17,695 nucleotides of DNA from a virus (Duplodnaviria; Heunggongvirae; Uroviricota; Caudoviricetes): positions 1 through 17,695 of IMG/VR virus record IMGVR_UViG_2778261667_000007; one strand, 5' to 3'. The position numbers and the translations under genes were made by a program. Below are positions 1 through 17,695 of the stretch, in pieces; within the stretch, counting starts at the first letter, position 1, and each line of letters begins with the position of its first letter. The notes under the pieces were generated by a model, which saw nothing but the letters and a program-made list of their open reading frames with translations, was not told where the DNA came from and did not search any database.

Positions 1-21
1 TACCTCTTGCTTCGGTCTCGT

Positions 22-100
22 CCACATTCTCTCTTTCTTTTTTTTTTTTTTTTTACTCCACCCCACACCCACCATCCTCACCCCCTCTCTTTTCGCGGGC
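22..100 (+). repeat. Polypyrimidine low-complexity tract with a T17 homopolymer (38-54) followed by a C-rich stretch; G-rich on the minus strand
   Basis: Read directly: ctctttc + 17 T + actccaccccacacccaccatcctcaccccctctc. Minus strand carries G runs (ggggg, ggg, gggg). Confidence 0.9.
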
Positions 101-176
101 GGCGTCAGATTTTGATAAGAAACAAAGCAAATACTGAATATGCGTCGGTAAACTTGAAAACAATAGGGGGTGATTC

Positions 177-1859: not shown

Positions 1860-1872
1860 CCGGAGGGAAATA

Positions 1873-2871: not shown

Positions 2872-2874
2872 TTG

Positions 2875-2900
2875 CGTTGAAAAATTAAATTTCTAACATA
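2875..2900 (-). promoter_or_regulatory. Recurrent motif copy 1 (minus orientation): TATGTTAGAAATTTAATTTTTCAA
   Basis: Reverse complement of 2875-2900 reads tatgttagaaatttaatttttcaacg, near-identical to the motif at 16362-16384 (tatgttagaaaactaattttccaa). Confidence 0.4.
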
Positions 2901-2917
2901 GTGTATTTATATACACT
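2900..2917. promoter_or_regulatory. Perfect 7-bp inverted repeat AGTGTAT-ttat-ATACACT, candidate dimeric regulator site; three GATC sites follow at 2921-2949
   Basis: Read directly; a related half-site (GTGTATAAATCCACTG) lies at 3011-3026 on the other side of the terminator, and GTGTAT recurs at 17641-17646. Confidence 0.3.
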
Positions 2918-2984
2918 GTTGATCCTGGTAGATGGGATCGAGTAGGATCGCGGTCACTGCTCCGGTAGCGACGGCTAAAAAAGC

Positions 2985-3010
2985 AAAAGCCGCTGAGAAG
3001 CGGCTTTTTG
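2985..3010 (+). terminator. Rho-independent terminator (bidirectional-looking)
   Basis: Stem gccgct (2989-2994) / agcggc (2999-3004), loop gaga, then TTTTT (3005-3009); the A-run upstream (2985-2988) gives a U-tract on the opposite strand too. Confidence 0.8.
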
Positions 3011-3070
3011 GGTGTATAAATCCACTGCCATAGATTTATACGGTAGATAGATTTTTCACGGAACTATCTG

Positions 3071-4033
3071 ATGAGTATTTTAAATTCAGTTCCAGTAACT
3101 TTCAACACTTCTGAGTATAAAAACAACACTGAATACCACAAAAAAATCAAAGGTCATCAGTTGAGTTTTTTTGCTCGTCATAGCGGTTTTCTTTCCCCTT
3201 CACATAGCGCCATTATTGCCGAGTTCGCCAACCTGGCAGGGGCTACCGATGAATACATGATCCGTCGCTCATATGCTGATATGTCCGAGATTACAGGACG
3301 CAGTATTTCTACTGTGCGCCGGGCATTTACCGAAGCGACGAAGTGCGGAATGCTTGTTAAGCAGCATCAGGTAGCGAATAACAATGCTCAGGTGTGTAAC
3401 GTGTACCGGTTTACAACACAATTTCTCCACTTCATTCATATTGCAATGGAGATAGGGGGTAAGCAGGGCATCAAATTTGCCAACGCCACAAAACTGGTTA
3501 AGCAGTTGATTTCAAAAGTTCGTTATTTTTTTGAAACTGGGAACCCCCTGTTCAAATTGAACAAGCCCCCCCATGTTCAAAATGAACAGCCAATAGAAAA
3601 TAAGAGTCACTCTATAGCCAAAAGAAGAGAAAGATCATGCGCGGTTCAGCCAAAGGCTTCACCAGCAGATAGTTCTCAAGCGGATAATGGGGGGCTGGAT
3701 AAAAAAACAGTAATCAGGGAAGAACATACCAACCACTGCCTGGCGGCGGCAAAAGCGAGAGCTGCAAAGCGTCGTTCAGACGAGGGGCACGCAAAACGGC
3801 AGGCTCTGTATCGTACCGCTGAAAAGCTGGCAAAAAAATTTGCATGGATACGTAGTGCCGCTACCGCAGTGAATAAGCCTAAACAATCCAGTGCCCTGGA
3901 TTTCTCAATGGATTATTCTGGCTCCCAGGGATGTGCAACCATTGGTGAAGCCTTTGACCTGATGAAACAGCGTGGCTATCGGTCTGAATTTGACCGTGAG
4001 GATTGGTCAATACCTGCGGGATTTAGGGGGTGA
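3071..4033 (+). CDS. HTH DNA-binding protein (320 aa), candidate replication initiator or regulator
   Basis: Helix-turn-helix-like segment ITGRSISTVRRAFTEATKCGMLV; basic, low-complexity C-terminal half. The coding region contains two palindromes separated by poly-C (3549-3586). Weak SD at the start. Confidence 0.5.
   Translation: MSILNSVPVTFNTSEYKNNTEYHKKIKGHQLSFFARHSGFLSPSHSAIIAEFANLAGATDEYMIRRSYADMSEITGRSISTVRRAFTEATKCGMLVKQHQVANNNAQVCNVYRFTTQFLHFIHIAMEIGGKQGIKFANATKLVKQLISKVRYFFETGNPLFKLNKPPHVQNEQPIENKSHSIAKRRERSCAVQPKASPADSSQADNGGLDKKTVIREEHTNHCLAAAKARAAKRRSDEGHAKRQALYRTAEKLAKKFAWIRSAATAVNKPKQSSALDFSMDYSGSQGCATIGEAFDLMKQRGYRSEFDREDWSIPAGFRG
3549..3586. repeat. Two adjacent palindromes inside the 320-aa CDS: TGTTCAA-a-TTGAACA (3549-3563) and TGTTCA-aaa-TGAACA (3574-3588), each preceded by a C-run
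   Basis: Read directly from sequence ccccctgttcaaattgaacaagcccccccatgttcaaaatgaacag. Confidence 0.85.
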
Positions 4034-4086
4034 CCTGTGTGTCTACAAAACATCCCAATGATCGGAAAATGCTCGTTCGATAATTT

Positions 4087-4116
4087 GTGTTAGAAAATTA
4101 ATTTGCCGTTTCTAAA
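4087..4116 (+). promoter_or_regulatory. Recurrent motif copy 2: GTGTTAGAAAATTAATTT, with inverted partner TTTCTAA (7-bp arms TTAGAAA / TTTCTAA)
   Basis: Read directly; lies about 60 bp upstream of the predicted immI promoter. Candidate operator for a global repressor. Confidence 0.4.
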
Positions 4117-4171
4117 TCAGAATGTATGATCTGCATCATCGATTAAAGTCATCCATTGCTGAAATTTTTAG

Positions 4172-4200
4172 TTGATCTTCCATGTTTTCAGGCTTATATT
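4172..4200 (+). promoter_or_regulatory. Sigma70-type promoter (TTGATC - 17 bp - TATATT) for the c4-like / icd / ant transcript
   Basis: -35 TTGATC 4172-4177, 17-bp spacer, -10 TATATT 4195-4200; predicted TSS near 4207. Confidence 0.5.
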
Positions 4201-4299
4201 CATGCCGTCGTAGCAAATTCTGCGACCGGGTTTGACAGCCTGAATACTTACGCGGACAACCGCACATTTCCGATATTGCGGTATTTTTGTGTCCGTAAA

Positions 4300-4390
4300 A
4301 CCACGTTACGCCCGAATTATGGTGGGGCGTGATGGGGAGGCTTCGGCCTGCTGGTTTCGTAAGTGCCAGTCTGTCAACCCTGTCACGTCC
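4300..4390 (+). ncRNA. c4-like antisense regulatory RNA (immI-type); ends approximate
   Basis: Element b' CGTAAGT (4358-4364) is the exact complement of ACTTACG in the upstream leader (4246-4252) and at the icd-like SD (4429-4435); a' CTGTCAA (4371-4377) is the exact complement of TTGACAG at 4232-4238 and 4401-4407. This a1b1 - b'a' - a2b2 layout matches the P1/P7 immI architecture. Flanking hairpins: acgccc/gggcgt (4308-4330) and a UUCG tetraloop stem (4338-4349). Confidence 0.5.
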
Positions 4391-4446
4391 TGCCACCTGT
4401 TTGACAGCGGGTCGCAGGTTGTTTATCAACTTACGAGGCCGTAACT

Positions 4447-4671
4447 ATGGTTAATGCCAATCCTTGCTCACGTCCAGAATTCATCTGGCGTTTCCACTCT
4501 CTGCAAAAACACTGCGATCATTTCGCAATTGCCGCAACCGAAAAAGAAGCCCGTTCTCTGATCCCTGATCAACATGGCGTCCTGACTGGCCGTTTCTCTA
4601 CTTCCTCACAACCAAACACTAATCCCTGGTATCGCAATATTACCAATCCCGGCATTGCGGAGGCACACTGA
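4447..4671 (+). CDS. Icd-like small protein (74 aa), first ORF of the immI-type operon
   Basis: ATG 4447 with SD gagg (4434-4437) lying inside the b2 target element; stop TGA overlaps the next gene's ATG (TGATG at 4669-4673), indicating translational coupling as in P1 icd-ant. Confidence 0.5.
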   Translation: MVNANPCSRPEFIWRFHSLQKHCDHFAIAATEKEARSLIPDQHGVLTGRFSTSSQPNTNPWYRNITNPGIAEAH

Positions 4672-5378
4672 TGGAAATCTGCATTCTTGAAAAGCCATCA
4701 ATGACTAGCATTGAGATCGCGGAGCTGGTGGGAAGTCGTCACTCTGATGTTAAACGCAGCATCGAAAGACTTGTTGCTAAAGGAATTATCCAACATACGC
4801 CATTGGCTACAGTTGAGAATAATCAATCACTTAGCCCTAATAAATACACAAAAGCCTATTTCTTCGAAGGCGAACAAGGCAAACGCGATAGCATCATTGT
4901 CGTCGCGCAGCTCTCTCCGGAATTCACCGCCCGGCTGGTGGACCGCTGGCGCGAACTGGAAGAACAAGCACGCCAGCCGTTGACCGAAATAGAGATGATC
5001 GCCGCAATGGCTGCAAATGCAGTTCAGCAGCAAAAGCGGCTTCATGCTGTTGAGTCAAAGGTTAGCCAGGTCGCTGAAACCGTCGAGAAAATAAAGAAAG
5101 GCAATATTCCGGAAGGTTACATTGGCTACCGCCAGTTGGCGGCGAAATGCGGCCTGACTGAAGCCAAATGCCGCAACCTTGTCAACGCTTACCGGATCCC
5201 CACCGATACACATGAGTTTTTAACTCCCGAGGGGGTATTGTCGCGTCGTTCCATCGTGGCCTTATCTCCCTTCATGAATGCTTTTAACCGGATGATGTCG
5301 GAGGCTGAACACCGAGGAAAACGCTGGTATCACCCCAAAATGGGGCAATTCCAGGTGATCGGTTGGGGAGGTGAGTGA
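4671..5378 (+). CDS. Rha-family phage regulatory protein / putative antirepressor (235 aa)
   Basis: N-terminus MTSIEIAELVGSRHSDVKRSIERL matches the Phage_pRha signature (TS..IAE..GkRH.dV.R.I..L). Start overlaps the stop of the upstream small ORF. Confidence 0.6.
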   Translation: MEICILEKPSMTSIEIAELVGSRHSDVKRSIERLVAKGIIQHTPLATVENNQSLSPNKYTKAYFFEGEQGKRDSIIVVAQLSPEFTARLVDRWRELEEQARQPLTEIEMIAAMAANAVQQQKRLHAVESKVSQVAETVEKIKKGNIPEGYIGYRQLAAKCGLTEAKCRNLVNAYRIPTDTHEFLTPEGVLSRRSIVALSPFMNAFNRMMSEAEHRGKRWYHPKMGQFQVIGWGGE

Positions 5379-5575
5379 TGGACATCATGCAGGCGGTAAA
5401 AAAAATCAGGGAAGGACAGGCTGAAGTGTGCCGCCGTAAAGCATGGAGTGTTGGTGTATGGGCCTGGCCTGATAATTACTCTACTACCGGATGGTTTTGT
5501 ATTAATGGACTCCAGATCCGGGAAGTTGATTTATCGACGGCTGATATAGTCGGTAATGATTGGATCGTGACTTGA
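5378..5575 (+). CDS. DUF2829-like small protein (65 aa from ATG 5378; ORF track gives GTG 5375), possible Tad2-like anti-defence sponge
   Basis: Pattern IMQAVKKIREGQAEVCRRKAW ... VDLSTADIVGNDWIV resembles the DUF2829 consensus (FGEALEALKAGKKVARKGW ... DLLAEDWEIV). GGAGG SD at 5367-5371 sits 6 nt before ATG 5378; ATG overlaps the upstream stop (TGATG). Confidence 0.5.
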   Translation: MDIMQAVKKIREGQAEVCRRKAWSVGVWAWPDNYSTTGWFCINGLQIREVDLSTADIVGNDWIVT

Positions 5576-5583
5576 AGCGTGAT

Positions 5584-5607
5584 GCCCCGGCCAGGCCGGG
5601 GCTTTTT
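5584..5607 (+). terminator. Rho-independent terminator shared by convergent genes
   Basis: Stem gccccgg (5584-5590) / ccggggc (5596-5602), then TTTTT (5603-5607). The T-run overlaps the stop codon of the minus-strand peptidase gene. Confidence 0.75.
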
Positions 5608-6092
5608 CATGCCTCATTAGTTGAGGTTGCTGCGTCTCCGAATGGTAACAGAGCGGTATTGCGTGGTTCGCCAGCAGGCCAGCGATAGCCAGACACTCTT
5701 GATGTTGGGAATGCGCGAATATTAACCGCATCCCCCTGGTTCCCACCCAAGACAAGCAGATCGCCATTGGCGCGGCGTCCGACAACAAAGCCTACGTGCC
5801 CACCGCCTACGCGGGTAAATACAACGATACATCCGTATGCCGGTGTATCTAATTTCTCGCCCCAATCCAGATAGGATTTTGCCGACTCAAATCTTGTTGA
5901 GCGGATGCCTACACGTTCCAGCATTGCACCGACAAATGCTGCGCACCACGGCGTTTCATCGTCTTTAATTCCGCCGCGCTTGATGTCGCGCCAGAACTGA
6001 ACGATTTCAGGGTTGTGTTTAGCGCCTTTTATTTCAGTCAGGCCAATGTGCTTACGGGCTTCAATTAGCCAGCGAGGTTCAATGTTTGCCAT
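5607..6092 (-). CDS. CHAP / NlpC-P60-like peptidase (TIGR02594-like phage protein), putative cell-wall hydrolase (161 aa)
   Basis: Conserved-looking Cys and His motifs (DETPWCAAFV, GGGHVGFVVG, LVLGGNQGDAVNI, GYRWP). SD ggag 8 nt upstream of ATG 6092. The start lies within about 20-40 bp of the predicted IS right end. Confidence 0.6.
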   Translation of the reverse strand: MANIEPRWLIEARKHIGLTEIKGAKHNPEIVQFWRDIKRGGIKDDETPWCAAFVGAMLERVGIRSTRFESAKSYLDWGEKLDTPAYGCIVVFTRVGGGHVGFVVGRRANGDLLVLGGNQGDAVNIRAFPTSRVSGYRWPAGEPRNTALLPFGDAATSTNEA

Positions 6093-6104
6093 ATTTTTCT
6101 CCCG

Positions 6105-6330
6105 GTCATGGGTTAATAAGTAGGCAAACTATGGGGAGTATGTGATTTTGACGGTAGTATCGTCCCCGTGACTACTCCCCGCTCTGTCTGGCGAGGCTTC
6201 CCACTTCTTAGGCAGCAACCGTCTGTATGACGGATTTACGCTGGCCTCCATGGACAGAAACGACGAGTCCCGCCGCCTGTAGTTCCAGTATTCCTTTTTG
6301 CCGGATATTGAGCGCCGCATTGATGTCGCG
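6105..6330 (-). ncRNA. Candidate omega-RNA (reRNA) guide scaffold of TnpB, overlapping the tnpB 3' end and IS right end; extent approximate
   Basis: Established architecture of IS200/IS605 elements (omega-RNA derived from the tnpB 3' end and RE) plus the multi-stem structure seen at 6134-6181. Not confirmed by covariance model. Confidence 0.3.
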
Positions 6331-7383
6331 ATCATGTTCAATACTGCATTCCGGGCATCGCCAGATGCGTTTATGAAGCGGCATTTCCGGCATTTTGTAA
6401 CCACAACAATGGCACGTTTTCGAACTGGCAAACCACTGGTCGAGTTTTACCAGGTGAACGCCTTTTTCCGCTGCCTTGTACTCCAGCTTTGTGATGAAGC
6501 TATGCCAGCCTGCATCACCTATCGCTCTTGCCAGATTGTGGTTTTTCATCATGTTGGCTGTTTTCAGCGTCTCGACAATTACCGCTTGGTTTTCGTCAAC
6601 AATTGCACGAGAGAGCTTGTGTTGAAAATCAGCACGGGCATTAGCCACCCGTTCGTGTAACGCTGCCAGACGGATTCTGGCCTTTTTACGATTCGCGCTT
6701 CCCTTTTGCTTGCGGGATAAGGCTTTTTGTTTGCGTCGCAAATTACGGCTGGCATTGATGAGATGGCGGGGATTTGCAATTTTTACCCCATCAGACTTGA
6801 TGGCAAAGTGCGATAATCCCATATCTATCCCCGTCACGCGGGATATCATGGAAGGTCTGGCTGGCGTTTCCATGCCATCATCGCAGAGTAGCGATGCATA
6901 ATATTTCCCCGTCGCAGAACGAGTGATAGTGATGCTTTTCAGCTTTCCATGAAGTTCACGATGAAGGCGTGCCTCAATCGGGGAAAGTTTGGGGATTTTG
7001 ATGGCATTATCCAGCACCTTAACTCCGACACAGTGATAGCTGGATTGCCAGCCGTTCTTTCTCTTGAAAGTCGGAAACCGGGCTTTCAGCTTCGGATTAA
7101 AAAAGTTGGAAAATGCCACATCAAGATTAATTACCGCCTGTTGCAATGCCATTGAATCAAACTCTTTGAGCCAGGCATACCTGCGGGACTTTTTGGCCAC
7201 AGACAACAACGGTTTCAGATCGTTACGCGGACTTAAATTTACTCCGTGTCTCTGGTAAGCATGTTTTTTGATGTGAAGAGCTTTATTGTACGCAAAGCGT
7301 ACCGCGCCGAACTGGGCATTGAGATACTTTGCCTGTTCCGGTGTTGAATAGATGCGTACTTTTGTTGCTCTTAACATAGTCAC
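6208..7383 (-). CDS. tnpB: IS200/IS605-family TnpB (RNA-guided RuvC-like nuclease), 391 aa
   Basis: RuvC-I (TGIDMGLSHFA), RuvC-II (VIVETLK), zinc finger (CHCCGY ... CPECS) and RuvC-III (HDRDINAALNI) in canonical order. Start is GTG at 7383 or ATG two codons later (7377). Confidence 0.9.
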   Translation of the reverse strand: MTMLRATKVRIYSTPEQAKYLNAQFGAVRFAYNKALHIKKHAYQRHGVNLSPRNDLKPLLSVAKKSRRYAWLKEFDSMALQQAVINLDVAFSNFFNPKLKARFPTFKRKNGWQSSYHCVGVKVLDNAIKIPKLSPIEARLHRELHGKLKSITITRSATGKYYASLLCDDGMETPARPSMISRVTGIDMGLSHFAIKSDGVKIANPRHLINASRNLRRKQKALSRKQKGSANRKKARIRLAALHERVANARADFQHKLSRAIVDENQAVIVETLKTANMMKNHNLARAIGDAGWHSFITKLEYKAAEKGVHLVKLDQWFASSKTCHCCGYKMPEMPLHKRIWRCPECSIEHDRDINAALNIRQKGILELQAAGLVVSVHGGQRKSVIQTVAA

Positions 7384-7571
7384 TGCTCATTGGTACAGGT
7401 TTTTATGCTAACACCGTAATAATATTTTTAAAGCCCTGTGGGCTTTTCCGCCGTTCCTCCCCGCCAGCACTGGGCGAGGGTTCTCGGCGGTTTTCGCTGA
7501 AAATAACATTCTCCATACCCTCTCAACCGTACCGCATAGCGGAATTTTTACGGTTTAGAGGGGGAAATCCT

Positions 7572-10500
7572 TTGGACAAACTACTTCATTCAATCAGTGA
7601 AGCCTCCAGCTTAGGCGAACTGATTGAGATTGTTAGTCGGTTGCATAAATTACGTGCTGTTGCGACCTTTGGTGTCAGGAAAGCCGATGGCGTCAGTATT
7701 CAGAAAACACGCCGGGCAGCAAACAACGCCGCAGTAAATCTTCTTAATTCCCTTCCTCCCGGTTTCGATGGGGCGAAATTAACTGACGAACAACGTCAGA
7801 TTCTTGCCGGGTATACCGGTGAAGGCGGCCTGACAGATGGTGAGGGCAGCCAATACGAATACTACACGCCACAGTTTATGGCTGAAGGTATATGGGATCT
7901 GTTTGCTGACTACGGTATTGATGGCGGGCACGTACTGGAACCATCAGCGGGCACAGGTATTTTCCAGGAGACAAAACGGCAGGGCATGATAATGACCAGC
8001 GCCGAACTGTCTCCGATTTCCGGTCGAATAAACCAGCTTTTGCACCCGGAAGACGATGTGAATATCGGGGCGTTTGAGGCGCTGGCGGCGAAAGACGCAA
8101 TGTATGATCACGCTGTTGGTAACGTACCGTTTGGTGAAGGGCGTTCCGGTGTCGCCGGGCTTGATCCGGCATATGCAAACGAGAAGAACGTTGGCAATTA
8201 CTTTGTGTTGCGCACGATCGACAAGGTTAAGCCTGGTGGACTAATTGTATTGGTGGTGCCGAATGGCATGACCGATGGTACGAAATACAAAAAATTGCGC
8301 GATAAAGTCAGCCGTAAAGCGGAATTTTTGGGCGCACATCGTATGCCTTCTGGTACGTTCAGCGAATCTGGTACAGATACCGTGGTGGACGTATGGGTAT
8401 TGCGTAAACACCCGGAAACCTTCCTGGAGATGATCCCCGACACGGATGATGCAATGCTCAAATCGGCAAACGTCCTTTGGGATACCTTCCTCAAAGGGAA
8501 ATGGTTTACAACCGAAGGGAAGCGATTTGTTTACGGCGACATGGAACGCACCAGCTTCCGCAATACCCTGGTGGTGAAAAAGGACGGTCGTGTATCCAAT
8601 GAGTCGATGAAAACCGCGTTATCACGCCGCTTTGAAAGCCGTATTAATTGGGATTTGCTCGGAGTAACTACCCAGGCATGGCAGGGCGCAAAAGTAGGGG
8701 ATAAGCGTCTTGTAGGCGGTATCTGGCATGAGTTTGATGGCCTGAAATGGGTTAAGGACACGACAACCGAATCCTCCGCGCTTGATGTAAGTCGATATGG
8801 TGTTTCGACGTTTGGCGATCTGCAGATCGCGTTCCAGTCAACAAACGGGATTCTGGCTTTGTCATGGGACCAGATATCGGCGATCGCGTCCGACTATCCA
8901 TCGGTTGTCAGTGATGAAGTGGCAGCAATGATTCGCTTTGCTGGCAAACAGCGAGAAAAAGACAGGGAGCGCGTTATGCGCGGTGCGTTGATAGGGCAGT
9001 TGATCAACAAGGCACTTGATTTGCGTAACCTGGGGGTGAACGTTGATGACAAACTGGCAGATGCATCCCGCCTGGCGGCAGCAGAAGTTGCGAAGTATGG
9101 ACCACCGCACGCGATTAAGCTGAATGGGCTTGCAGAAGCTGGAGCTAAAAACTGGATGACGTTCACTGGCAACGTGAAACAGGATGGTTCCACTTCTGAC
9201 CTTCTGGCAGGGCGACTTGATGTAACGGATGGTGCTGCCGGTATTGACTTTACACGTCCTGAACAAGTGATAGCACATCTTTTCAGTGATGTAGCCCTTA
9301 ATCCTATAACGCTGGGCGACTTTCGTGAGGCGTTTGCTGGTGAACTGCCAGAGGACGACGACGCGGCCCTTGAATACCTGGCGAAATTTGATGATATCGC
9401 TATTGATGGGTATGGCTGCCTGCTGCTGATGGACCGCGCCACCAGCGGCGATATTGCAACCAAAACAGCATTGCTGATGGGCTGGCGTGATGCGTCAACA
9501 GGTGAGCAGAAATCGAACTTTGAGCGTCAGTTGGCGAAAATCGAAGAGAAACGCATTTTCACGCCACTAAATAAAGTCACCGTTAATCTGAATGCCCGCT
9601 GGCTGGATCGCCGTTTGATAAAAGAGTTCCTGGCAGAGCAGGGCTATGACGAGTTTAAGTACACTGAACCTGATCTGAAGGTCGTCGATGGCATTCTGGT
9701 ATCTCCGGACGATTACGAAGGTAAGGACGGTGTATTTACCGGCTATCAGCTACGAACCGTAAACGGCAAAAACGGGAATGAGTTCAAGAAGGCCAACAAT
9801 AAAGACGGCTTCCTGAACCAGTTAGAAAACTACCTGAACGGCGTCAAACCGCGCGGGCAGAACGCTAACGAGTACCTGGATAAGATTGCTCAACTTGAAG
9901 TTAGCTTTAACGACTGGTTACGCACCCACCCGCAGGCTGATCAGATAGCCCGTGACTATAACGACGCATTCAATGGCTTCATTCCGTTCACGCACTCTAA
10001 CGCACCGCTTGGCCTGGAAGGGATTAGTGGAAAGCGCATTCCTCTGACTTATCAGAATGAAGAAGTTCGGCGCTTGTCAGAAGATGGGCGCGGCATCATG
10101 GGATTTGGTACCGGGCTGGGTAAAACCACGACCGCGCTTGCGCTTGAGGCGTATAACTTCGAAACAGGTCGCACTAAACGCACGTGTATTGTTGTTCCGA
10201 AGGCGGTTTATCAGAACTGGTATCACGAGGCACAGAGCTTCTACAGTGCTGATGCCTTCGCCAATATGATGTTTATCGGTCTGGATGAAGTTCGTGATGA
10301 AGACGGCAATATTCTGACCGCGCCGGTGCTTGATGAAAATGGCGAACCCCGCCTGGACAGTAACGGGCAGCCTCTTACCCGCAATGTGGTGAAAGAATCC
10401 GCCAGCGCAGTTATCGTTCAGCGCATGAACATGATCCCGTCGTCAAATTGGCGAACGGTCATCATGACGAAAGAGCAATTCGCGTCTATCCCGCTACGAG

Positions 10501-13500
10501 AAGAAACCATTGAGGAAAACTCACAGCAAGCTGTCTTTAATGCTGTGGAAATGGGGCGTCTTGACCTGGCGTCCGGTAAACACCGTGACGCGCAGAAGAA
10601 GAACAAGATTAAGGATCAGGCAGCAAATACCGGTACAACGAAGAAGCAGAATATCCCGTACTTTGAGGATATGAACTTCGATAGCGTGATTGCCGACGAG
10701 GGGCATAACTACCGAAACTCCTTTAATGCCGGGCGTGAAGCGGGACAACTGGCATATTTGCCTAACCCGGCAGTATCCAAGATGGCCCGCGACATGGCTG
10801 TAAAAGCTGCGTACATGATGAAACGCAACAACGGGCGCGGTGTAGTCATGCTGACGGCAACTCCGCTGGTGAACAGTCCGATTGATGCCTTCAACATGCT
10901 GTCTACTGTCATTCCGCAGGAAGAGTGGATGCGCATGGGCATCATTACGCCTGATGATTTCGTTCGTGTGTTTGGCAAAACAGCAACAGTTCAGGTTCAG
11001 AAAATTTCCGGTGAGGTGGAAGAGAAGCAGGGGCTGGTGGGCTTCCAGAACCTGGACGGTCTGCGTGGTATTTTCCATCGCTGGACTACTCTGAAGAATG
11101 CTGCGGACGTCGGGGCGACGGTTAAAATCCCCGACATCATCGAGAACACCTTGCAGATCCCGATGACAGGGGAGCAGGAGACTGCTTATGAAGAACTTCG
11201 TAAGCGTGCTCAGGAGTTAAGTCGCAATGATGAGCTGACAGTCGATGAAAACGGGCATATCACTAACGACAAACCGGATGATTTCATCTTCTCCATCATC
11301 CGTGACATGGATAAGGTTGCTATAGACCCGGATCTGTATGCCAGTGCGATTACATTCCAGTTCCCCGTTGAGCTTGCAGACCAGGTAAAAGCTATTGCTG
11401 ATGCCTTGCCAAAAGTAGCTGGCGGTAAAGTGGCAGATGATGCAGACGAGGTCGAAGAAGATGGCGCTGGTGGGCTGGTCAGTACGCGTACCAGCAAGGT
11501 AGTGAAGACCACCTTTAGTGAACATCCGGCGCATGTTGAAATACGCGCCAGCATTGAACTGGAAACTGAAATACTGAAGGCCATTGCGGCTGCCGGTATT
11601 GATATGCAGCAGGTATCGCACCCCATCCCGCCGAAGTATGCCGCGCTGATCGAAAATCTTCGTGAAGGTCTGAAGAACGGTAAGCAGATCGTCTTTATTG
11701 ATGAAAAAGCCCAGCACCAGAAGCTGCGCCGTATTATCGCCAGTGCACTGCAAATGCCGGAGCAGGAGATAGGCATTATCAATGCGACGACCGTTAGCCA
11801 GGCTGGTGGCATCAAGCTGAAGAAGGTGAATAAGCCGACTGAACCTACTCTGAATAAAAACGGTGAATACAAAGAAGGGGCATGGGAAACCTACTACAGC
11901 AAACTTGCCCAATATGAGGATTATCTCTCAGCTAAAAATGATGCTGGCCTTGAGGGTATGGAAGGCATTGCCGCCGACTATAACGAAGGTCGCACGCGCA
12001 TCATTATCTGTAACAAGAAGGCTGAAGTAGGTATTAACCTGCATATCGGGACAACCGATATCCACCACCTGACACTACCCTGGACACCAGCCAGTATCGA
12101 CCAACGAAATGGGCGCGGTGCGCGCGTAGGTTCACCGCAAGAGAAGGTCAATGTTCACTACTACTGTGGCAAAGGCACATTTGATGATTTCCGCCTGGAT
12201 ACGCTGAAACGCAAGAAAGACTGGATCAAGATGGTGATGACCTCCGACATGTCAGAGATCGCCAATGGTGATGCGGATGATGCAGATGAACGCGCCATTA
12301 TGCTGGCAGCAAATCCGGAAGAGCGCCGCGCAATCATGGCCCGTCAGGCGCAAGAGCGTGAAGAACGCCTTAAACTGAAAGCGCAGCGCGAGGCCGGTAA
12401 TGCTCTTGATAACTACCTGAAAGCGGCTAATGCTGCCGGGAAAGATATCGGCATGATGGAGACAGAGCTGAAAAGCGCGATGGAGCAGGTAGAGCATTAC
12501 CAGCGCAATCTTGACGACCTGATAAAAGCGGGGACGAACAGGAACGGGCAAAAATATGTTCTAGAACAGTTGCGAGACTACAGAAAACGCGCGCGGGAGC
12601 TGCGGTTTGCTATCACCAGAGCAAAAGACGCTGATACCGTTATGAAACGCTCTCGCGGTGATCTGGAACGAGCCATTAAAGCCGGTATTCTGGAGCTTGA
12701 TGCCGATGTATTACAAAACCCACAGGAATATGTGCGAACTGAGAAAAATATCTTGTTGCACAAGGGCAGCCATTATCGAGCGATCATCGATGAGAATCAC
12801 AACACAACAGCAATTGTTCGTGTGACAGACATTGATGCGGAAAGAGGCGGATGTACTTGCCGCATATCCTGGCTGGATGTGGCTAGTCGTTACTCTCGCT
12901 CCCCCGGGACAGCATTGTATTTACCCTTTAACTTGATAATTGAAGCTGTATCTTTTGAAGAAGGAGTTGCTGAATCGCGTGAAACAGCCGCACGCGGTGT
13001 TCAGAGTCACCAATTATCAACAACACTTACTCGCGCTCAGTTCTATGATGCCATTCGAAATGGAGTCATGAAGGTTACCACCGGCAAGCCTGGTTTGGCA
13101 TGGGGCGGTGGGCAAGCGATTAAATACTGGGCCTATCGCACCGACGATGGTCAGATCGCTCTGTCAACGGCCTATGATGGCGTGATAGGCCAAAAAATCG
13201 GGCGAGCATCGGATATAGCACCTGAACGATGGATATATCCAGATGGCAACGATGAGGCGCTGAAGCGTGAAGTGGCAAAAATACAAGCCAGTGATAACCC
13301 GCTGAATATCGTGGACGGTGAGGGATTCCTCCAGGCATTGTATGGATATGATTACATCCAGGGAATGCAGGCATGGGGAGCGCAAGCCACAATGGATGAT
13401 GTTACCCAGGAATTTGAAAACTGGATGGCAGGGCGTGGTCTTTCTGGTCGTTCGCTTAACAAAGTCACGTCTGAAGATATTCTTAGCCTGTTCCGAAAAC

Positions 13501-14411
13501 CGTCCGGAGAAGGTCTGGAATTATTCTGGAAGACCGTGGTGGCATACCGTTTATTCCGGGGCAGGATGAAAGCCTTTAGCAACACTGATGACATTGAACG
13601 GATGTTTAATCAGGTGAAGGTCGCGAAAATTACGGCGAAAATCGAGAAGACACGAGCTGCGCTGGTGGCCTGGCGCGATGCATTGTTTGAGCAATATAAA
13701 TCACTCAGTGATGCAGATGGATGGGCTGCACTGGAACAGTTGGCGAATAATGGGGTAGATGGAGCGAAACTCGCCATTGTTCAGGCTGATAACCCTCTGG
13801 AATCACCGGCAGCACAATGGATTAAGGTGGGGGCTGTCATCAATGCATTTGATGAGAAACACATTAGTAAAGACGATTTTGCTGATGCTGTTTCTATTAA
13901 TCGCCTGGTAGAAATGGCTACCCGCCGCGCCCGTGAGTTGAAAGACGGTGACTATGTGAATGAGTTGCCGGATGCGCTCAAATCAGCAACGTGGCAAGAC
14001 TATGTATCGCTGAAAAACGGCGGTGCTACCGAATCAGAGATCGCTAAAAGACTTGAGCAGGTTGAAAGCAAAAGAGAAGAGCAGGCGGCAGTGGCTGACG
14101 CCAGAGCTGATGAAGCGGCGAATGATGACTATATCATTGTGGTTAATGATAAGCCGATTCGCGCTAAGGCGCGTGTTCGCGGGCGCTGGTGGAGCGTCAG
14201 CGAGGACGTCGGTGCGGTTTATCTCATTGCCGACCAACCTGGTTCCTCGACAATACGGAACGCCAAAGACGCGATTAAGAAGATTGGCGGGCGTTTCTGG
14301 AATTTTGAAGTAAACCCGGTTGCTGATGTGAACTTTGACCGTCCGGCATGGATGGTATCTACGCGTTACTCGGTAGATGAACTGCGTAAAATAATCGCCG
14401 ATGCGGCCTAA
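7572..14411 (+). CDS. Giant N6-adenine methyltransferase / SF2 helicase fusion (2279 aa), DarB-like antirestriction protein
   Basis: MTase motif I EPSAGTGIF (nt ~7938-7964) and motif IV NVPFGEG (~8121-8141); helicase Walker A GFGTGLGKTT (~10101-10130), DExH VIADEGHNY (~10692-10706), motif III TATP, motif VI QRNGRGARVG (~12103-12132); coiled coil and a ~600-aa C-terminal extension. TTG start at 7572 with SD agaggggg 8 nt upstream. Size and domain order resemble phage P1 DarB (recalled, not searched). Confidence 0.7.
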   Translation: MDKLLHSISEASSLGELIEIVSRLHKLRAVATFGVRKADGVSIQKTRRAANNAAVNLLNSLPPGFDGAKLTDEQRQILAGYTGEGGLTDGEGSQYEYYTPQFMAEGIWDLFADYGIDGGHVLEPSAGTGIFQETKRQGMIMTSAELSPISGRINQLLHPEDDVNIGAFEALAAKDAMYDHAVGNVPFGEGRSGVAGLDPAYANEKNVGNYFVLRTIDKVKPGGLIVLVVPNGMTDGTKYKKLRDKVSRKAEFLGAHRMPSGTFSESGTDTVVDVWVLRKHPETFLEMIPDTDDAMLKSANVLWDTFLKGKWFTTEGKRFVYGDMERTSFRNTLVVKKDGRVSNESMKTALSRRFESRINWDLLGVTTQAWQGAKVGDKRLVGGIWHEFDGLKWVKDTTTESSALDVSRYGVSTFGDLQIAFQSTNGILALSWDQISAIASDYPSVVSDEVAAMIRFAGKQREKDRERVMRGALIGQLINKALDLRNLGVNVDDKLADASRLAAAEVAKYGPPHAIKLNGLAEAGAKNWMTFTGNVKQDGSTSDLLAGRLDVTDGAAGIDFTRPEQVIAHLFSDVALNPITLGDFREAFAGELPEDDDAALEYLAKFDDIAIDGYGCLLLMDRATSGDIATKTALLMGWRDASTGEQKSNFERQLAKIEEKRIFTPLNKVTVNLNARWLDRRLIKEFLAEQGYDEFKYTEPDLKVVDGILVSPDDYEGKDGVFTGYQLRTVNGKNGNEFKKANNKDGFLNQLENYLNGVKPRGQNANEYLDKIAQLEVSFNDWLRTHPQADQIARDYNDAFNGFIPFTHSNAPLGLEGISGKRIPLTYQNEEVRRLSEDGRGIMGFGTGLGKTTTALALEAYNFETGRTKRTCIVVPKAVYQNWYHEAQSFYSADAFANMMFIGLDEVRDEDGNILTAPVLDENGEPRLDSNGQPLTRNVVKESASAVIVQRMNMIPSSNWRTVIMTKEQFASIPLREETIEENSQQAVFNAVEMGRLDLASGKHRDAQKKNKIKDQAANTGTTKKQNIPYFEDMNFDSVIADEGHNYRNSFNAGREAGQLAYLPNPAVSKMARDMAVKAAYMMKRNNGRGVVMLTATPLVNSPIDAFNMLSTVIPQEEWMRMGIITPDDFVRVFGKTATVQVQKISGEVEEKQGLVGFQNLDGLRGIFHRWTTLKNAADVGATVKIPDIIENTLQIPMTGEQETAYEELRKRAQELSRNDELTVDENGHITNDKPDDFIFSIIRDMDKVAIDPDLYASAITFQFPVELADQVKAIADALPKVAGGKVADDADEVEEDGAGGLVSTRTSKVVKTTFSEHPAHVEIRASIELETEILKAIAAAGIDMQQVSHPIPPKYAALIENLREGLKNGKQIVFIDEKAQHQKLRRIIASALQMPEQEIGIINATTVSQAGGIKLKKVNKPTEPTLNKNGEYKEGAWETYYSKLAQYEDYLSAKNDAGLEGMEGIAADYNEGRTRIIICNKKAEVGINLHIGTTDIHHLTLPWTPASIDQRNGRGARVGSPQEKVNVHYYCGKGTFDDFRLDTLKRKKDWIKMVMTSDMSEIANGDADDADERAIMLAANPEERRAIMARQAQEREERLKLKAQREAGNALDNYLKAANAAGKDIGMMETELKSAMEQVEHYQRNLDDLIKAGTNRNGQKYVLEQLRDYRKRARELRFAITRAKDADTVMKRSRGDLERAIKAGILELDADVLQNPQEYVRTEKNILLHKGSHYRAIIDENHNTTAIVRVTDIDAERGGCTCRISWLDVASRYSRSPGTALYLPFNLIIEAVSFEEGVAESRETAARGVQSHQLSTTLTRAQFYDAIRNGVMKVTTGKPGLAWGGGQAIKYWAYRTDDGQIALSTAYDGVIGQKIGRASDIAPERWIYPDGNDEALKREVAKIQASDNPLNIVDGEGFLQALYGYDYIQGMQAWGAQATMDDVTQEFENWMAGRGLSGRSLNKVTSEDILSLFRKPSGEGLELFWKTVVAYRLFRGRMKAFSNTDDIERMFNQVKVAKITAKIEKTRAALVAWRDALFEQYKSLSDADGWAALEQLANNGVDGAKLAIVQADNPLESPAAQWIKVGAVINAFDEKHISKDDFADAVSINRLVEMATRRARELKDGDYVNELPDALKSATWQDYVSLKNGGATESEIAKRLEQVESKREEQAAVADARADEAANDDYIIVVNDKPIRAKARVRGRWWSVSEDVGAVYLIADQPGSSTIRNAKDAIKKIGGRFWNFEVNPVADVNFDRPAWMVSTRYSVDELRKIIADAA

Positions 14412-14447
14412 CAGATAAGGAGCGGCCCCAACCGGGGCCGAATTTGA

Positions 14448-14882
14448 ATGACGACATTAATTGACACTGTAAAACCGACGGAATCCTACCTTGAGGACAT
14501 TTTGCCGCAGGCGCTCAATGGCAGGAGTGAAGAGGCGTTTCTGGATGCATATCTGAATGGCATGGTGGAAAGGCTGAAACGAGATCCACAGCTTTATCAC
14601 CTCTATGGGCCGTGGTGGCCTGCGCTTAAAACGTTATTGCTGGAGCGCGGCGACATATCATTTGGACAAGTTGTAGATAGTGATGTGGCAGAGATCTACA
14701 AAATGAGTCGCCCGGCGCTTACGGTTTTAGCCGGGCATCTGTATTCGAGCGAGCGCCTGGAAAATGACGCGGTATACAATCCCGTTCATGCTCTGGAAGT
14801 TGCACCTTATGCTGATGATACAGAGCCATACGTATACACAAGTTACGATGAGTCCATAGAGAAGTATCGAATCATGGGGTAG
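14448..14882 (+). CDS. Hypothetical acidic protein (144 aa)
   Basis: ATG 14448; 24 acidic versus 12 basic residues. Sits immediately downstream of the DarB-like gene, with a GC-rich hairpin (14423-14440) between an SD (aaggag, 14417-14422) and the ATG. Confidence 0.6.
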   Translation: MTTLIDTVKPTESYLEDILPQALNGRSEEAFLDAYLNGMVERLKRDPQLYHLYGPWWPALKTLLLERGDISFGQVVDSDVAEIYKMSRPALTVLAGHLYSSERLENDAVYNPVHALEVAPYADDTEPYVYTSYDESIEKYRIMG

Positions 14883-14884
14883 CC

Positions 14885-15145
14885 ATGCGAAAGAACCGTA
14901 AGTTTACGCTCGAAGACCTGAAGGAATATTCCACATCGAAGGGGTATGTCCTTGAGTTCCACCGTTACAAGAAGGTTTTTACACTGCGAAAAGCAGAAAA
15001 ACCTGCGGCCTGGAGCTGGGTATACTTCCCTCATACAGAAGACAAACTGGTAGAGCTTGTTGACGATTTAACCTACGAAGGTTGGTTGTTCGCAATCGAC
15101 AGGACAATCAGAGAAATATCCGAACCGGATAAAATAAACCTTTAA
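14885..15145 (+). CDS. Hypothetical protein (86 aa)
   Basis: ATG 14885, 2 nt after the upstream stop, so likely translationally coupled; no recognisable motif. Confidence 0.5.
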   Translation: MRKNRKFTLEDLKEYSTSKGYVLEFHRYKKVFTLRKAEKPAAWSWVYFPHTEDKLVELVDDLTYEGWLFAIDRTIREISEPDKINL

Positions 15146-15281
15146 AAATAACAAGTTGGGTAAATGCCATGCGATTTGCCCTCCTTGTTGATTAAGGTCA
15201 CTCTTTACTCTAAAAGCAAATCCGACCTGTTGCATATAGCCCATCCTTGAGTAGTATCTCTCTTGTTTTACAAATCTAACG

Positions 15282-15776
15282 TTGTTGTTATTATTTCGCT
15301 TATTTACTATCAATGGGTGTGTTAGAAAAATAGCGCGAAAAAGAAGGCGTCGCAGTGAATATTCTGAAACATCCCCACATGCCGCAGCTCTCAGTGAACT
15401 GGAGAAAAACCCAGATCTAATCAAAAGGAACCATGAGCATTACGAGCAGGTTCGCGTCCTGGATTGGCTGTATCGCAATATGCGCTATGTGTATGAGCAT
15501 ACACACGCCACTCCCAACGGTGGTCTGCGAGGCATAAGGACGGCAATAAAGATGGTGGCAGAAGGCCAAAAGAAAGGATATCCCGATCTTTCTATAGACC
15601 TTGCTTGCGGGGGATACCACGGAATGCGCATTGAGATGAAACATGGGAGAAATCGCCTGACTCCCGAACAACTCGTCTGGATGACTCGCCTCACTGAAGC
15701 AGGCTACTACTGCTTTGAGGCGCGTAGTGCCGCTGAAGCCATAAAAGCTATCACGGAATATGTTTGTCTTGATTAA
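15282..15776 (+). CDS. VRR-NUC domain nuclease (PD-(D/E)xK); start uncertain, possible frameshift
   Basis: VRR-NUC signature HEHYEQVRVLDWL ... HATPNGG ... KKGYPDLSIDL ... RIEMKHGRNRLTPEQLVWMTRLTEAGYY. No in-frame ATG/GTG upstream of the domain; the only in-frame start is TTG at 15282 without an SD, giving an Arg-rich N-terminal extension. A GTG with good SD (aagaagg) at 15355 is in the +1 frame and stops at 15418-15420. Confidence 0.55.
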   Translation: MLLLFRLFTINGCVRKIARKRRRRSEYSETSPHAAALSELEKNPDLIKRNHEHYEQVRVLDWLYRNMRYVYEHTHATPNGGLRGIRTAIKMVAEGQKKGYPDLSIDLACGGYHGMRIEMKHGRNRLTPEQLVWMTRLTEAGYYCFEARSAAEAIKAITEYVCLD

Positions 15777-15790
15777 ACGGAGAAATCGTT

Positions 15791-15991
15791 TTGCGTTTAC
15801 TTAACGTGGCTGAACTTATCCCTGCTGGTGCTAACGTTGTTGCTCGCCGTCGCTCATGGCAGCAACCATTGTGTATTGAGTTGTTGAAACACAGCAATGG
15901 AACAATAGAGGCTCGGAATATTGTCACTGGTGATAAGGTTCACATAACTCCGGAAAGTACAGGCGCTGATGATTGGGAGTTTGTACATTGA
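15791..15991 (+). CDS. Hypothetical small protein (66 aa)
   Basis: TTG start at 15791 with SD ggag 9 nt upstream; follows the VRR-NUC stop by 14 nt. Confidence 0.45.
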   Translation: MRLLNVAELIPAGANVVARRRSWQQPLCIELLKHSNGTIEARNIVTGDKVHITPESTGADDWEFVH

Positions 15992-16287
15992 GAAAAAAAT
16001 ATTATGTGAACCTGGCGTTTGCGGATGACGCCGGGAGGACGCGGAGCATTACGCTCAACACTGCTCGTAAGGTGGTAACAGCGCCGTTAATCCGGGAAGC
16101 TCTCAGGGAACTGGATATGGGGGAGAACTCGACCCTTTTGTCGGTTAGTTGGTTAGGAAAAATGTCAGAGAAAGAATACGTAGACGGTGTCACACCAATA
16201 ACGGCAATAAGGCTAATTTCATTGCTGCAATGGGCTATCGTACCTGTATGCATTGCGTATTTGATCTACAAGACCATGACTCAATAA
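15988..16287 (+). CDS. Small membrane protein (about 99 aa from TTG 15988; ORF track start 15973), single C-terminal transmembrane helix
   Basis: Hydrophobic C-terminus ITAIRLISLLQWAIVPVCIAYLIY. TTG 15988 has SD gggag 9 nt upstream and overlaps the upstream stop (TTGA). Followed directly by a terminator. Confidence 0.5.
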   Translation: MRKKYYVNLAFADDAGRTRSITLNTARKVVTAPLIREALRELDMGENSTLLSVSWLGKMSEKEYVDGVTPITAIRLISLLQWAIVPVCIAYLIYKTMTQ

Positions 16288-16294
16288 CTGCTCA

Positions 16295-16322
16295 AAAACC
16301 CGCCGATTAGCGGGTTTTTTGT
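16295..16322 (+). terminator. Rho-independent terminator
   Basis: aaaa-cccgc-cgatta-gcggg-tttttt: 5-bp GC stem, 6-nt loop, six-T run (16315-16320). Confidence 0.85.
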
Positions 16323-16361
16323 TTATCACATCTTTCGATCCTGTTCTCATGCTAATAAAAT

Positions 16362-16394
16362 ATGTTAGAAAACTAATTTTCCAAAATTAACAGG
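16362..16394 (+). promoter_or_regulatory. Recurrent motif copy 3: ATGTTAGAAAACTAATTTTCCAAAATTAACAGG, immediately upstream of the 402-aa gene
   Basis: Contains the perfect palindrome AATTTTCCAAAATT and outer inverted arms TGTTA / TAACA; ends 8 nt before ATG 16402 (SD agga). Confidence 0.45.
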
Positions 16395-16401
16395 AACAGC
16401 A

Positions 16402-17610
16402 ATGAGTCAACAAACTGATACTTCTAATCTGGATATCATCTCAGCCGCAATTGAAACGCTGCGGACACAGATCGCTCTTATTCAAAAGCGGAATCCGGGA
16501 GATGACCTCTCCAGGCGACTGCATGAGAGCGTCATTGCCACTACAGATAACCTGGTGGCGGAAATCAACCAGCTCCTTGATGATGGGGCAGTTGATTACA
16601 ATAAGCTGGTGGATCAGTTTGAGGAATATCAGCAAGCCGTTAATGATGGCTTGATCCGTTTTTCACAAGTCACTGGCGTACCAGCGACAGTTGAAAGCTT
16701 GGGTGATGCAGTTAATCAATTTGCCGTGAATATGCGTAATGAGATCGGCAATCTGGAGGCGCGTCTTGAACAGGCAAATACACTGCGCAAATCTGCTGAA
16801 GTTGATTTGAGCCGTTACAAAAAAGACTATCCGCCCAGCCTGACAAAACGACTGGATGTTGCGGAGAAGGATAACCGCACACTGAAAAGAGAGCGTCGGG
16901 AATTAAAAGAGCGTTTAACCAAGCTAAATCAGCAATGCATTGAGTATCAAGGCGAACTCGTCACATTGCGTAAAAAGTTAGCAGCGGCGCAGAGCATTAT
17001 TGAAACATTGAAACGAGAGTGCTCACAGCTTGGCCATGATCTGAATCGCGCCTGTGGTATGGGGCAAAGGCCAGAGACATTCCCGCTCATGTATGACGGA
17101 AGAGAAGCTATTGCCTATATTCATGAGTTTCCGCATGGTCTGGTCGCGGAGACTGGGCAACGTGGCGAAGCATTGCTTACGGCAAATTACCACCAACAAA
17201 TTAGAACCAGCCGCCTGCTGACGATGGATGTGATCCCGTCAGTATGGGGAACACCACTTTACTACCGAATTCCTGGCTTCGAAACGGACTGGAATACCGA
17301 CATAGACGAATGCCTGGCAGATAAAATAATGGCGTATCTGGAGACTGATTTCCCGCGTTTGTATCGCCGGATTATGGACTCTAAGGGCGCGCCGATCGAT
17401 GAATTGAAAATGCGCCCAGAGACACTGGAGGCAATCAAGCAGACAGAGTTTGATACAGTATTCAGTGTTGCCTGTATTCCAAGCAGCTTTCATGAAAGCA
17501 TTCCGTTCATGCAAGGCGAGCGTCGTCAGGAGATCATTGATGCTTGCCGGGTATGGGCGAACGAATGGGACAAGAAGAATGGGGGCGTAGAAGATCTTTA
17601 TGGGAAATAA
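16402..17610 (+). CDS. Hypothetical protein (402 aa): N-terminal coiled coil (~200 aa) plus C-terminal globular domain, function unknown
   Basis: ATG 16402 with SD; heptad-like N-terminal half (ETLRTQIALIQK ..., RTLKRERRELKERLTKLNQQCIEYQGELVTLRKKLAAAQSIIETLKRE). Bracketed by copies 3 and 4 of the motif and preceded by a terminator. Confidence 0.6.
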   Translation: MSQQTDTSNLDIISAAIETLRTQIALIQKRNPGDDLSRRLHESVIATTDNLVAEINQLLDDGAVDYNKLVDQFEEYQQAVNDGLIRFSQVTGVPATVESLGDAVNQFAVNMRNEIGNLEARLEQANTLRKSAEVDLSRYKKDYPPSLTKRLDVAEKDNRTLKRERRELKERLTKLNQQCIEYQGELVTLRKKLAAAQSIIETLKRECSQLGHDLNRACGMGQRPETFPLMYDGREAIAYIHEFPHGLVAETGQRGEALLTANYHQQIRTSRLLTMDVIPSVWGTPLYYRIPGFETDWNTDIDECLADKIMAYLETDFPRLYRRIMDSKGAPIDELKMRPETLEAIKQTEFDTVFSVACIPSSFHESIPFMQGERRQEIIDACRVWANEWDKKNGGVEDLYGK

Positions 17611-17611
17611 T

Positions 17612-17640
17612 GTGTTAGAAATCTAATTTTAATTAACAGG
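17612..17640 (+). promoter_or_regulatory. Recurrent motif copy 4: GTGTTAGAAATCTAATTTTAATTAACAGG, downstream of the 402-aa gene and upstream of the next gene beyond the window
   Basis: Read directly; an inverted partial copy (cttaacatag, 17661-17670) lies 20 bp further on. Confidence 0.4.
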
Positions 17641-17695
17641 TGTATTGATTGTGAAAATAACTTAACATAGAATTTTCCTTGCTGGTGGAGCGTTG

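Follow-up and report, generated by a model that had tools for sequence, protein, structure and literature searches.

The five genes downstream of darB

The window analysed here is a stretch of 17,695 nucleotides, positions 1 to 17,695 of IMG/VR virus record IMGVR_UViG_2778261667_000007 (Caudoviricetes), and belongs to a phage-D6-like member of the P1 family; D6 is itself a P1-family phage-plasmid. Between positions 14448 and 16322 lie five small genes, all on the plus strand and encoding proteins of 144, 86, 164, 66 and 99 amino acids (aa), preceded by a homologue of the antirestriction gene darB and closed by a strong terminator (Table 1). This much agrees with an earlier, sequence-only reading of the window, which went on to interpret the cluster as a single accessory module of defence or anti-defence genes, possibly in a variable hotspot. 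Our analysis leads to a different view. The five genes are likely to be the D6-type versions of P1 ulx, lxc, pmgM and pmgR together with one lineage-specific gene, and to form part of a conserved backbone rather than one module. To judge from their P1 counterparts, the four shared genes have unrelated roles: assistance to antirestriction, immunity, the processing of DNA and the completion of heads.

Over the whole cluster, a region of 2 kb, the DNA is 91% identical to that of Escherichia phage D6 (NC_050154 / MF356679), where the five genes appear as orf14 to orf10 in identical order and orientation and where both the terminator and the intergenic hairpin are also found. The annotation of D6 runs darB-like orf15, ulx-like orf14, hypothetical orf13, pmgM-like orf12, hypothetical orf11, pmgR-like orf10 and pmgS-like orf9, and the order in the window is the same throughout. 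Among plasmids of E. coli, Salmonella and Shigella, 111 records match, and 109 of these cover at least 80% of the query and keep the gene order. The other loci compared were D6 (L001), P1 (L003), L006, L008 and loci from Yersinia (L007), E. hormaechei (L009) and S. arizonae (L010). All five genes are kept in L006 and L008 at about 50-70% protein identity, and the order darB-ulx-lxc-like-pmgM...pmgR-pmgS is kept in L007 and L009, so that the arrangement darB-ulx-lxc-like-pmgM-(variable slot)-pmgR-pmgS persists in relatives that are only about 50% identical. Synteny is thus conserved, contrary to the proposal of a variable hotspot.

Ratios of non-synonymous to synonymous substitution rates (dN/dS) against phage D6 range from 0.02 to 0.26 for all five open reading frames (ORFs), which indicates purifying selection and, together with the matches of all five proteins to PHROG families, argues that these are genuine genes. 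The lack of a recognisable domain had been noted for three of the five proteins; for Pfam this understated the case, with four lacking a match, but it does not extend to PHROG. Differences from D6 are distributed as a mosaic, with identities of 96-97% for ulx, pmgM and the intergenic gap, compared with 89% for orf86, 84% for orf66 and 80% for pmgR (dS up to 0.87), a pattern that suggests recombination between D6-type lineages within the cluster. The tight packing described earlier is not found throughout, as a non-coding gap of 136 nt (15146-15281) between the second and third genes divides the cluster into groups of two and three. Two transcription units would meet at this point: one is the darB operon, of which the cluster contains the 3′ end, and the other consists of pmgM, orf66 and pmgR. 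A conserved hairpin lies between them.

Table 1. Features in and around the five-gene cluster, in window coordinates
Feature	Position	Strand	Basis or remarks
darB homologue (2279 aa), antirestriction methyltransferase/helicase	7572..14411	+	D6 orf15 'similar to P1 darB'; SNF2-related protein in plasmids
AAGGAG (14417-14422), 7-bp GC hairpin (14423-14440), 7-nt spacer, ulx ATG	14417..14447	+	Layout common to D6, L006-L010 and P1
ulx homologue, acidic, 144 aa	14448-14882	+	ATG start; matches to P1 Ulx and phrog_1629
orf86 (D6 orf13), 86 aa, Lxc/Bof-like, proposed C1 co-repressor	14885-15145	+	ATG start; profile and transitive homology, position 3′ of ulx
Extended 40-nt stem-loop just 3′ of orf86 stop	15150..15189	+	-17.4 kcal/mol, z -4.9
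Sigma-70-like TTTACA-16-TATTAT, overlapping pmgM start codon	15267..15294	+	Sole promoter-scan hit in 14000-17000; 4.4 expected by chance
pmgM homologue, 164 aa, basic N-terminal extension and VRR-NUC domain	15282..15776	+	TTG start; matches to P1 PmgM, PF08774 and psNUC
orf66 (D6 orf11), 66 aa, lineage-specific	15791..15991	+	TTG start; phrog_7206
pmgR homologue, 99 aa, beta-beta-alpha-beta domain (residues 1-60) and C-terminal membrane helix	15988..16287	+	TTG start overlapping orf66 stop
Intrinsic terminator closing the pmgM-orf66-pmgR unit	16294..16319	+	10-bp stem, T-run, -14.1 kcal/mol, z -3.9; conserved in D6
17-bp motif ATGTTAGAAAACTAATT, candidate D6-type C1 operator, between terminator and pmgS	16362..16378	+	Recurrence at P1-equivalent sites
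pmgS homologue, 402 aa, coiled coil, separate downstream unit	16402..17610	+	phrog_1660 (9e-143); D6 orf9

Ulx and an Lxc-like protein at the probable end of the darB operon

The product of the first gene is 47% identical to P1 Ulx over its full length (E 2e-45) and matches phrog_1629, annotated as 'Ulx-like anti-restriction' (E 2.4e-59). Among the roles suggested for it by the sequence-only reading, that of an Ulx-like DarB cofactor is therefore the one that stands, and its acidic character was also correctly described (net charge -12, isoelectric point 4.5). Its dN/dS against D6 is 0.02, and homologues form 44 clusters, often named olxA, on contigs of 85-110 kb from many Enterobacterales. 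The AlphaFold model, at a mean confidence (pLDDT) of 92, consists of a helical bundle and a hairpin. The darB stop at 14411 is followed on the same strand by the ulx start at 14448, and ulx also lies directly 3′ of darB in P1 and in L006-L010. In P1, Ulx is located in the head and aids DarB localisation (PMC9024508), it is concerned, with DarB and DdrB, in the response to EcoB/EcoK restriction (PMC12810830), and ulx, like pmgM and pmgS, is non-essential (PMC10695390). By homology, gene 1 encodes Ulx, the protein that is packaged into virions and assists DarB in antirestriction, and the analogy with P1 predicts head packaging and DarB-dependent protection. It would thus be a P1-like small acidic head protein, needed for the DarB-dependent shielding of injected DNA from type I restriction of the EcoK/EcoB type. 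With the Dar system of P1 (DarA, DarB, DdrA, DdrB and Hdf as well as Ulx) the window shares the length of Ulx, its place directly 3′ of darB and the structure of the junction between the two genes; the difference is that the remaining Dar genes, which are present in D6, lie outside the window.

That junction has the same architecture in all eight elements compared (the window, L001, L003 and L006-L010): a GGAG, a hairpin of 7-8 bp, 7-9 nt and the ulx ATG. The stem sequences differ, so that the layout is conserved by structure and not by sequence, family-wide and including P1. Predicted free energies of the hairpins fall between -10 and -17 kcal/mol, and the loops are of the UUCG or GNRA type in three of the elements compared (UUCG in P1 and L009, GCGA in L008). 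The hairpin is likely to act either as a bridge within the Shine-Dalgarno region of ulx or as a 3′ stabiliser of the darB mRNA. In the ribosome-binding-site reading, which we infer from the layout, the GC hairpin would bring an AGGAG located 25 nt upstream to about 7 nt from the ulx ATG; with the hairpin formed the spacing becomes that of a normal ribosome-binding site, and translation of ulx probably depends on it. The arrangement is akin to that of phage T4 genes 38 and 25. We regard the hairpin-bridged site ahead of ulx as one of three small new points to emerge from this analysis, the others being the Lxc-like assignment of orf86 and the candidate D6-type operator.

The second gene, orf86, starts 2 nt after the ulx stop, and in our reading it completes the darB operon as darB, ulx and orf86. 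Only six close clusters were returned by a word-indexed search, and an exhaustive profile search with the orf86 family added about ten more small proteins, 84-94 aa in length. The same search also hit three giant proteins (P0068, P0073 and P0076), which were set aside as repeat artefacts, in which Sushi and DUF5050 repeats mimic the 'W-VYF--T-DKL' motif, and P0066 was discarded as a frameshifted or chimeric assembly product. The gene found directly 3′ of ulx in L006, L007, L008 and L009 belongs to the same family. A profile of 17 sequences gave a 64-column alignment with P1 Lxc (hhalign E 2.8e-5), and comparison with a two-sequence Lxc profile gave a score of 32.5 (84%, E 7e-6), against a mean of 9.9 and a maximum of 19.6 for 200 column-shuffled controls. 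When the hidden Markov model of the family was run against all 1673 stop-to-stop ORFs of P1, lxc came out on top (E 0.0018, the next at 0.63). A chain of pairwise matches leads to the same protein, from orf86 to its L007 relative (3.5e-8), from L007 to L009 (5e-12) and from L009 to P1 Lxc (2e-6). The alternative identification of orf86 as PmgL was rejected, since neither BLASTP nor a shallow 7-sequence profile found any similarity.

Position agrees with the profile evidence. In P1, lxc occupies the equivalent place and overlaps the ulx stop, and the S. arizonae plasmid has the order darB-ulx-lxc-pmgL-pmgM with an Lxc 61% identical to that of P1. The record in question (CP053320.1, Salmonella enterica subsp. 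arizonae plasmid, 1-6246) is unannotated; the element is P1-like, with Ulx, Lxc and PmgM that are P1-type by sequence in a D6-type gene order, and type III restriction-modification genes do not follow its lxc. Sequence and synteny together point to orf86 as a distant homologue of P1 Lxc, also called Bof, in the equivalent position, and we propose a co-repressor role for it. Lxc is the co-repressor of C1 in P1 (PMC8546580). The P1 protein enters the complex of C1 with its operator, makes repression tighter and prevents the anti-repressor Coi from acting, and orf86 would be the D6-lineage version of it; D6 encodes a c1 homologue, which in our case falls outside the window. The two proteins share a size class (82 aa for Lxc, 86 aa here), their abutting or overlapping position at the ulx stop and profile-level homology, and differ in that identity is only about 20-25% and in that the operator motif of this lineage is unlike that of P1. 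A published analysis reported no detection of Lxc in D6-like elements, which was taken as a sign of a different lysogeny mechanism (PMC6799933); this is why the present assignment is new. The 'missing' Lxc co-repressor of these elements is probably D6 orf13, with its homologues in over 100 E. coli, Salmonella and Shigella phage-plasmids.

A candidate operator for such a circuit was also found. The window contains four copies of the motif ATGTTAGAAAACTAATT, where 0.07 would be expected by chance, and the D6 stretch also contains four, one of the latter (L001 28081-28097) adjoining c1. The copies in the window lie upstream of repL (2883-2899, minus strand), upstream of icd (4087-4103, plus strand), before pmgS and after pmgS (17612-17628, plus strand); none falls within the five-gene cluster. 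The C1 operators of P1 lie at corresponding places, and for this reason we put the motif forward as a candidate D6-type C1 operator. Its recurrence at P1-equivalent sites lends support to an immunity circuit of the C1/Lxc type, knowledge of which is of practical value given that elements of this kind often carry resistance genes. An operator-like half match, TGTTAGAAAAATA, is present at 15320-15332.

The pmgM, orf66 and pmgR genes

Between orf86 and pmgM, the stable stem-loop that follows the orf86 stop differs from its D6 counterpart at two stem positions, with pairing kept in both, and in L006 a hairpin followed by a T-rich run is seen at the same place (by eye, from the alignment). It is probably the 3′ end or an attenuator of the unit that comprises darB, ulx and the lxc-like gene, which it would bring to a close. 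The sigma-70-like site at the far end of the gap is of doubtful function, because transcription from it would begin downstream of the TTG start of pmgM, a start backed by comparison with L006, L008 and P1. A motif common to the gap and the region upstream of prt, AAAGCAAAT, occurs at chance level only and was dropped. Searches of Rfam gave sub-threshold hits only, all of them on the terminator that ends the cluster; the prediction of a strong terminator at this site is borne out.

The VRR-NUC domain previously recognised in the third gene product scores above the Pfam cut-off (PF08774, 26.1 bits against 23.8). The protein is 57% identical to P1 PmgM and matches psNUC (PDB 4QBL, E 1.2e-13) with the catalytic residues D102, E118 and K120 aligned (YPD...E-x-K), so that the residues of the PD-(D/E)xK motif are present. 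It shares with P1 PmgM and psNUC a single-domain architecture in which GYPD and RIE(M/I)K blocks surround the catalytic D...E-x-K, and one of its PHROG matches, phrog_5702, carries a resolvase annotation. A basic N-terminal extension of 24-37 residues occurs in every lineage; in the window it comprises 29 residues and cannot be aligned with the 37 residues of P1, a further difference being that pmgL does not precede pmgM here. Conservation of the extension in L006, L008 and P1 favours the TTG start at 15282 or the next TTG at 15285, the latter having been chosen for a close plasmid by NCBI PGAP. A GTG at 15355 has a good Shine-Dalgarno sequence (AAGAAGG, 6 nt upstream) but was excluded as the start, being in the +1 frame and leading to a stop after 21 codons (15355-15420). 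The enzymes psNUC, stNUC and saNUC (psNUC and two phage proteins) are dimeric VRR-NUC nucleases that cut Holliday junctions symmetrically (PMC4103454). Judged by these homologies, PmgM is a stand-alone VRR-NUC nuclease, and by analogy it is most likely a resolvase of Holliday junctions or branched DNA. As a dimer it would clear Holliday junctions and branches from phage DNA undergoing replication or recombination, prior to packaging and in redundancy with host enzymes.

For the fifth gene the mechanical ORF begins at 15973 and would encode 104 aa; the start that overlaps orf66 gives 99. Residues 1-65 are homologous to P1 PmgR (31% identity, E 5e-7; hhalign 95%, E 4.7e-8), pmgR is the top match among all P1 ORFs (E 2.8e-5), and the gene lies directly upstream of pmgS as it does in P1. 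Where the P1-type protein would be expected to be small and soluble, with about 70 aa, the window protein has about 30 extra C-terminal residues. These contain its single hydrophobic stretch (residues 76-94, nt 16213-16269, mean Kyte-Doolittle value 2.02), and residues 71-98 are helical in the AlphaFold model (pLDDT 84), in agreement with the single-pass membrane protein predicted earlier. The tail is kept, with variable sequence, in 10 of 11 aligned non-P1 homologues and is absent from P1, L007 and L009. In P1 a pmgR knockout leaves unjoined tails and incomplete heads (PMC9024508). The P1 protein being essential for head completion, the lineage represented here would have added a C-terminal membrane anchor to a morphogenesis factor. 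Further differences from P1 are the coupling of pmgR to orf66, a gene that P1 does not have, and the absence here of a C1 operator upstream of pmgR; an operator-like motif stands before pmgS instead.

The fourth gene, orf66, is the lineage-specific member of the cluster. Among deposited phages it is found only in D6, homologues are present in L006 and L008, no counterpart was seen in P1, L007 or L009, and neither Pfam nor PDB gave a match; its dN/dS against D6 is 0.20. The orf66 stop overlaps the pmgR start as TTGA here and as GTGA in L006, in each case after a conserved GGGAG, which suggests that the two genes are probably translationally coupled. A perfect 12-bp inverted repeat (15936-15947 and 16002-16013) brackets the stop and start. 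The notion that an inner hairpin of this repeat masks the GGGAG ribosome-binding site of pmgR was abandoned: the repeat is present in D6, with a weak z-score there, and is absent in L006. The slot between pmgM and pmgR varies within the family, being empty in L009, occupied by a Tad2-like protein and an 87-aa gene in L007 and by pmgN-pmgQ/ppp in P1. Tad2-like proteins (PF11195) of 190-191 aa are common in these phage-plasmids (L006 10472-11047, L007 6907-7479, L008 from 10246). A suspected resemblance of orf66 itself to Tad2/DUF2829 was not supported, with no Pfam hit at E values up to 10 and hhalign probabilities below 1% against two Tad2-like proteins.

Alternative readings and flanking sequences

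The most obvious competitor is the proposal that all five genes constitute one accessory defence or anti-defence cassette in a variable hotspot by darB, with the nuclease and the membrane protein acting together in abortive infection or superinfection exclusion. The cluster does adjoin darB, Ulx truly is an antirestriction factor, what lies between pmgM and pmgR differs across the family (a Tad2-like protein in Yersinia, glycosyltransferase and phosphatase genes in P1), and both orf66 and the membrane tail of PmgR are lineage-specific. However, PADLOC-DB contained no defence family matching any of the five proteins, the sole hit being a chance-level one to Ulx (E 0.047); for four of the genes, the P1 counterpart serves another purpose; nearly all plasmid records, and distant relatives too, show the order unchanged; and the hairpin and gap split the cluster in two. 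The supposed pairing of nuclease and membrane protein is that of PmgM with PmgR, the latter a morphogenesis gene in P1, and other lineages have both but neither the membrane tail nor orf66 (PmgR lacks the helix in P1 and in two others). We consider the cassette extremely unlikely: a defence-related role survives for Ulx and not for the rest of the cluster. What resembles a defence island is, in our reading, ordinary P1-family backbone with no priority for defence or anti-defence screening, orf66 being a possible exception. A different combination of the same elements, in which pmgM, orf66 and pmgR form a membrane-tethered station that ties the debranching of DNA and the completion of heads to the inner membrane, or in which orf66 is a new anti-defence protein, is prompted by the membrane anchor of D6-lineage PmgR and by its coupling to a lineage-specific gene in an accessory-gene slot; we hold it to be very improbable.

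For individual genes, too, other roles can be envisaged. There is a slim chance that Ulx is a DNA mimic of the Ocr/ArdA type that binds type I restriction enzymes directly instead of assisting DarB. Its acidity would suit such a role, as would the packaging of P1 Ulx in the head and the need for it against EcoB/EcoK, but P1 genetics describe Ulx as an aid to the localisation or incorporation of DarB, and fold searches with the Ulx model found no resemblance to known DNA mimics. A net charge of -12 over 144 aa moreover appears modest beside that of dedicated mimics such as Ocr. In the case of PmgM, a nuclease whose target is a host defence, or the DNA of the host or of a competitor, is unlikely. 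VRR-NUC domains are also described as antibacterial effectors of type VI secretion systems (PMC9635880), pmgM is dispensable for P1 growth, and the basic extension is without an assigned role. Against this, psNUC, which is its closest relative among characterised proteins, belongs to the canonical dimeric Holliday junction resolvases, one PHROG family of PmgM is annotated accordingly, and PmgM consists of one stand-alone domain, lacks a secretion signal, has neither a toxin partner nor an immunity gene and is conserved next to morphogenesis genes in every lineage examined. Somewhat unlikely, finally, is a reading of orf86 as another accessory of the Dar system, co-expressed and perhaps co-packaged with DarB and Ulx. 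The 2-nt gap to ulx, the constant linkage to darB and ulx and the published failure to detect Lxc in D6-like elements (PMC6799933) would fit such a protein. The profile and transitive evidence, on the other hand, single out Lxc among all P1 ORFs, lxc has the same position in P1, the S. arizonae plasmid has a bona fide Lxc in D6-type gene order, and the element family possesses both a C1 homologue and operator-like motifs.

The backbone reading, with orf86 as the Lxc equivalent, has several observations to contend with. Direct comparison of orf86 with P1 Lxc, by BLASTP or with a shallow 7-sequence profile, was insignificant (a point that also favours the Dar-accessory role), and identity is remote, about 20-26%, with significance reached only through the 17-member profile or through intermediates. 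In P1, lxc is served by constitutive promoters of its own within ulx, whereas a crude consensus scan found no sigma-70-like sites within ulx here (14448-14884), again as a co-expressed Dar accessory would predict. No promoter could be assigned to the pmgM unit, the one sigma-70-like site being that which overlaps its start codon; neither the window nor the D6 stretch contains a match to P1-type C1 operators, and matches to P1-type late promoters are at or below chance. Fold searches with Ulx and PmgR returned no informative match, and since the membrane helix of PmgR is absent in P1, the role of this protein may have shifted. All of these weigh against the reading we prefer. The homologies, the synteny, the purifying selection, the RNA hairpins and the terminator are observed; as to the boundaries of the transcription units and each of the biochemical activities, we infer them from these.

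Two features elsewhere in the window may be mentioned. A TnpB protein of 391 aa from the IS200/IS605 family (RNA-guided endonuclease family; NF040570, 2.9e-104) is encoded on the minus strand at 6208-7383, between a TIGR02594 gene and darB and 188 nt upstream of the darB start. The insertion is absent from this site in D6 and in plasmid pS143-4, which distinguishes the window from D6, and it could affect the promoter of the darB operon. Within positions 1-120, upstream of the portal gene, a stretch of some 20 T residues precedes a C-rich tract (ccaccccacacccaccatcctcaccccctctc), a composition unusual for the element.

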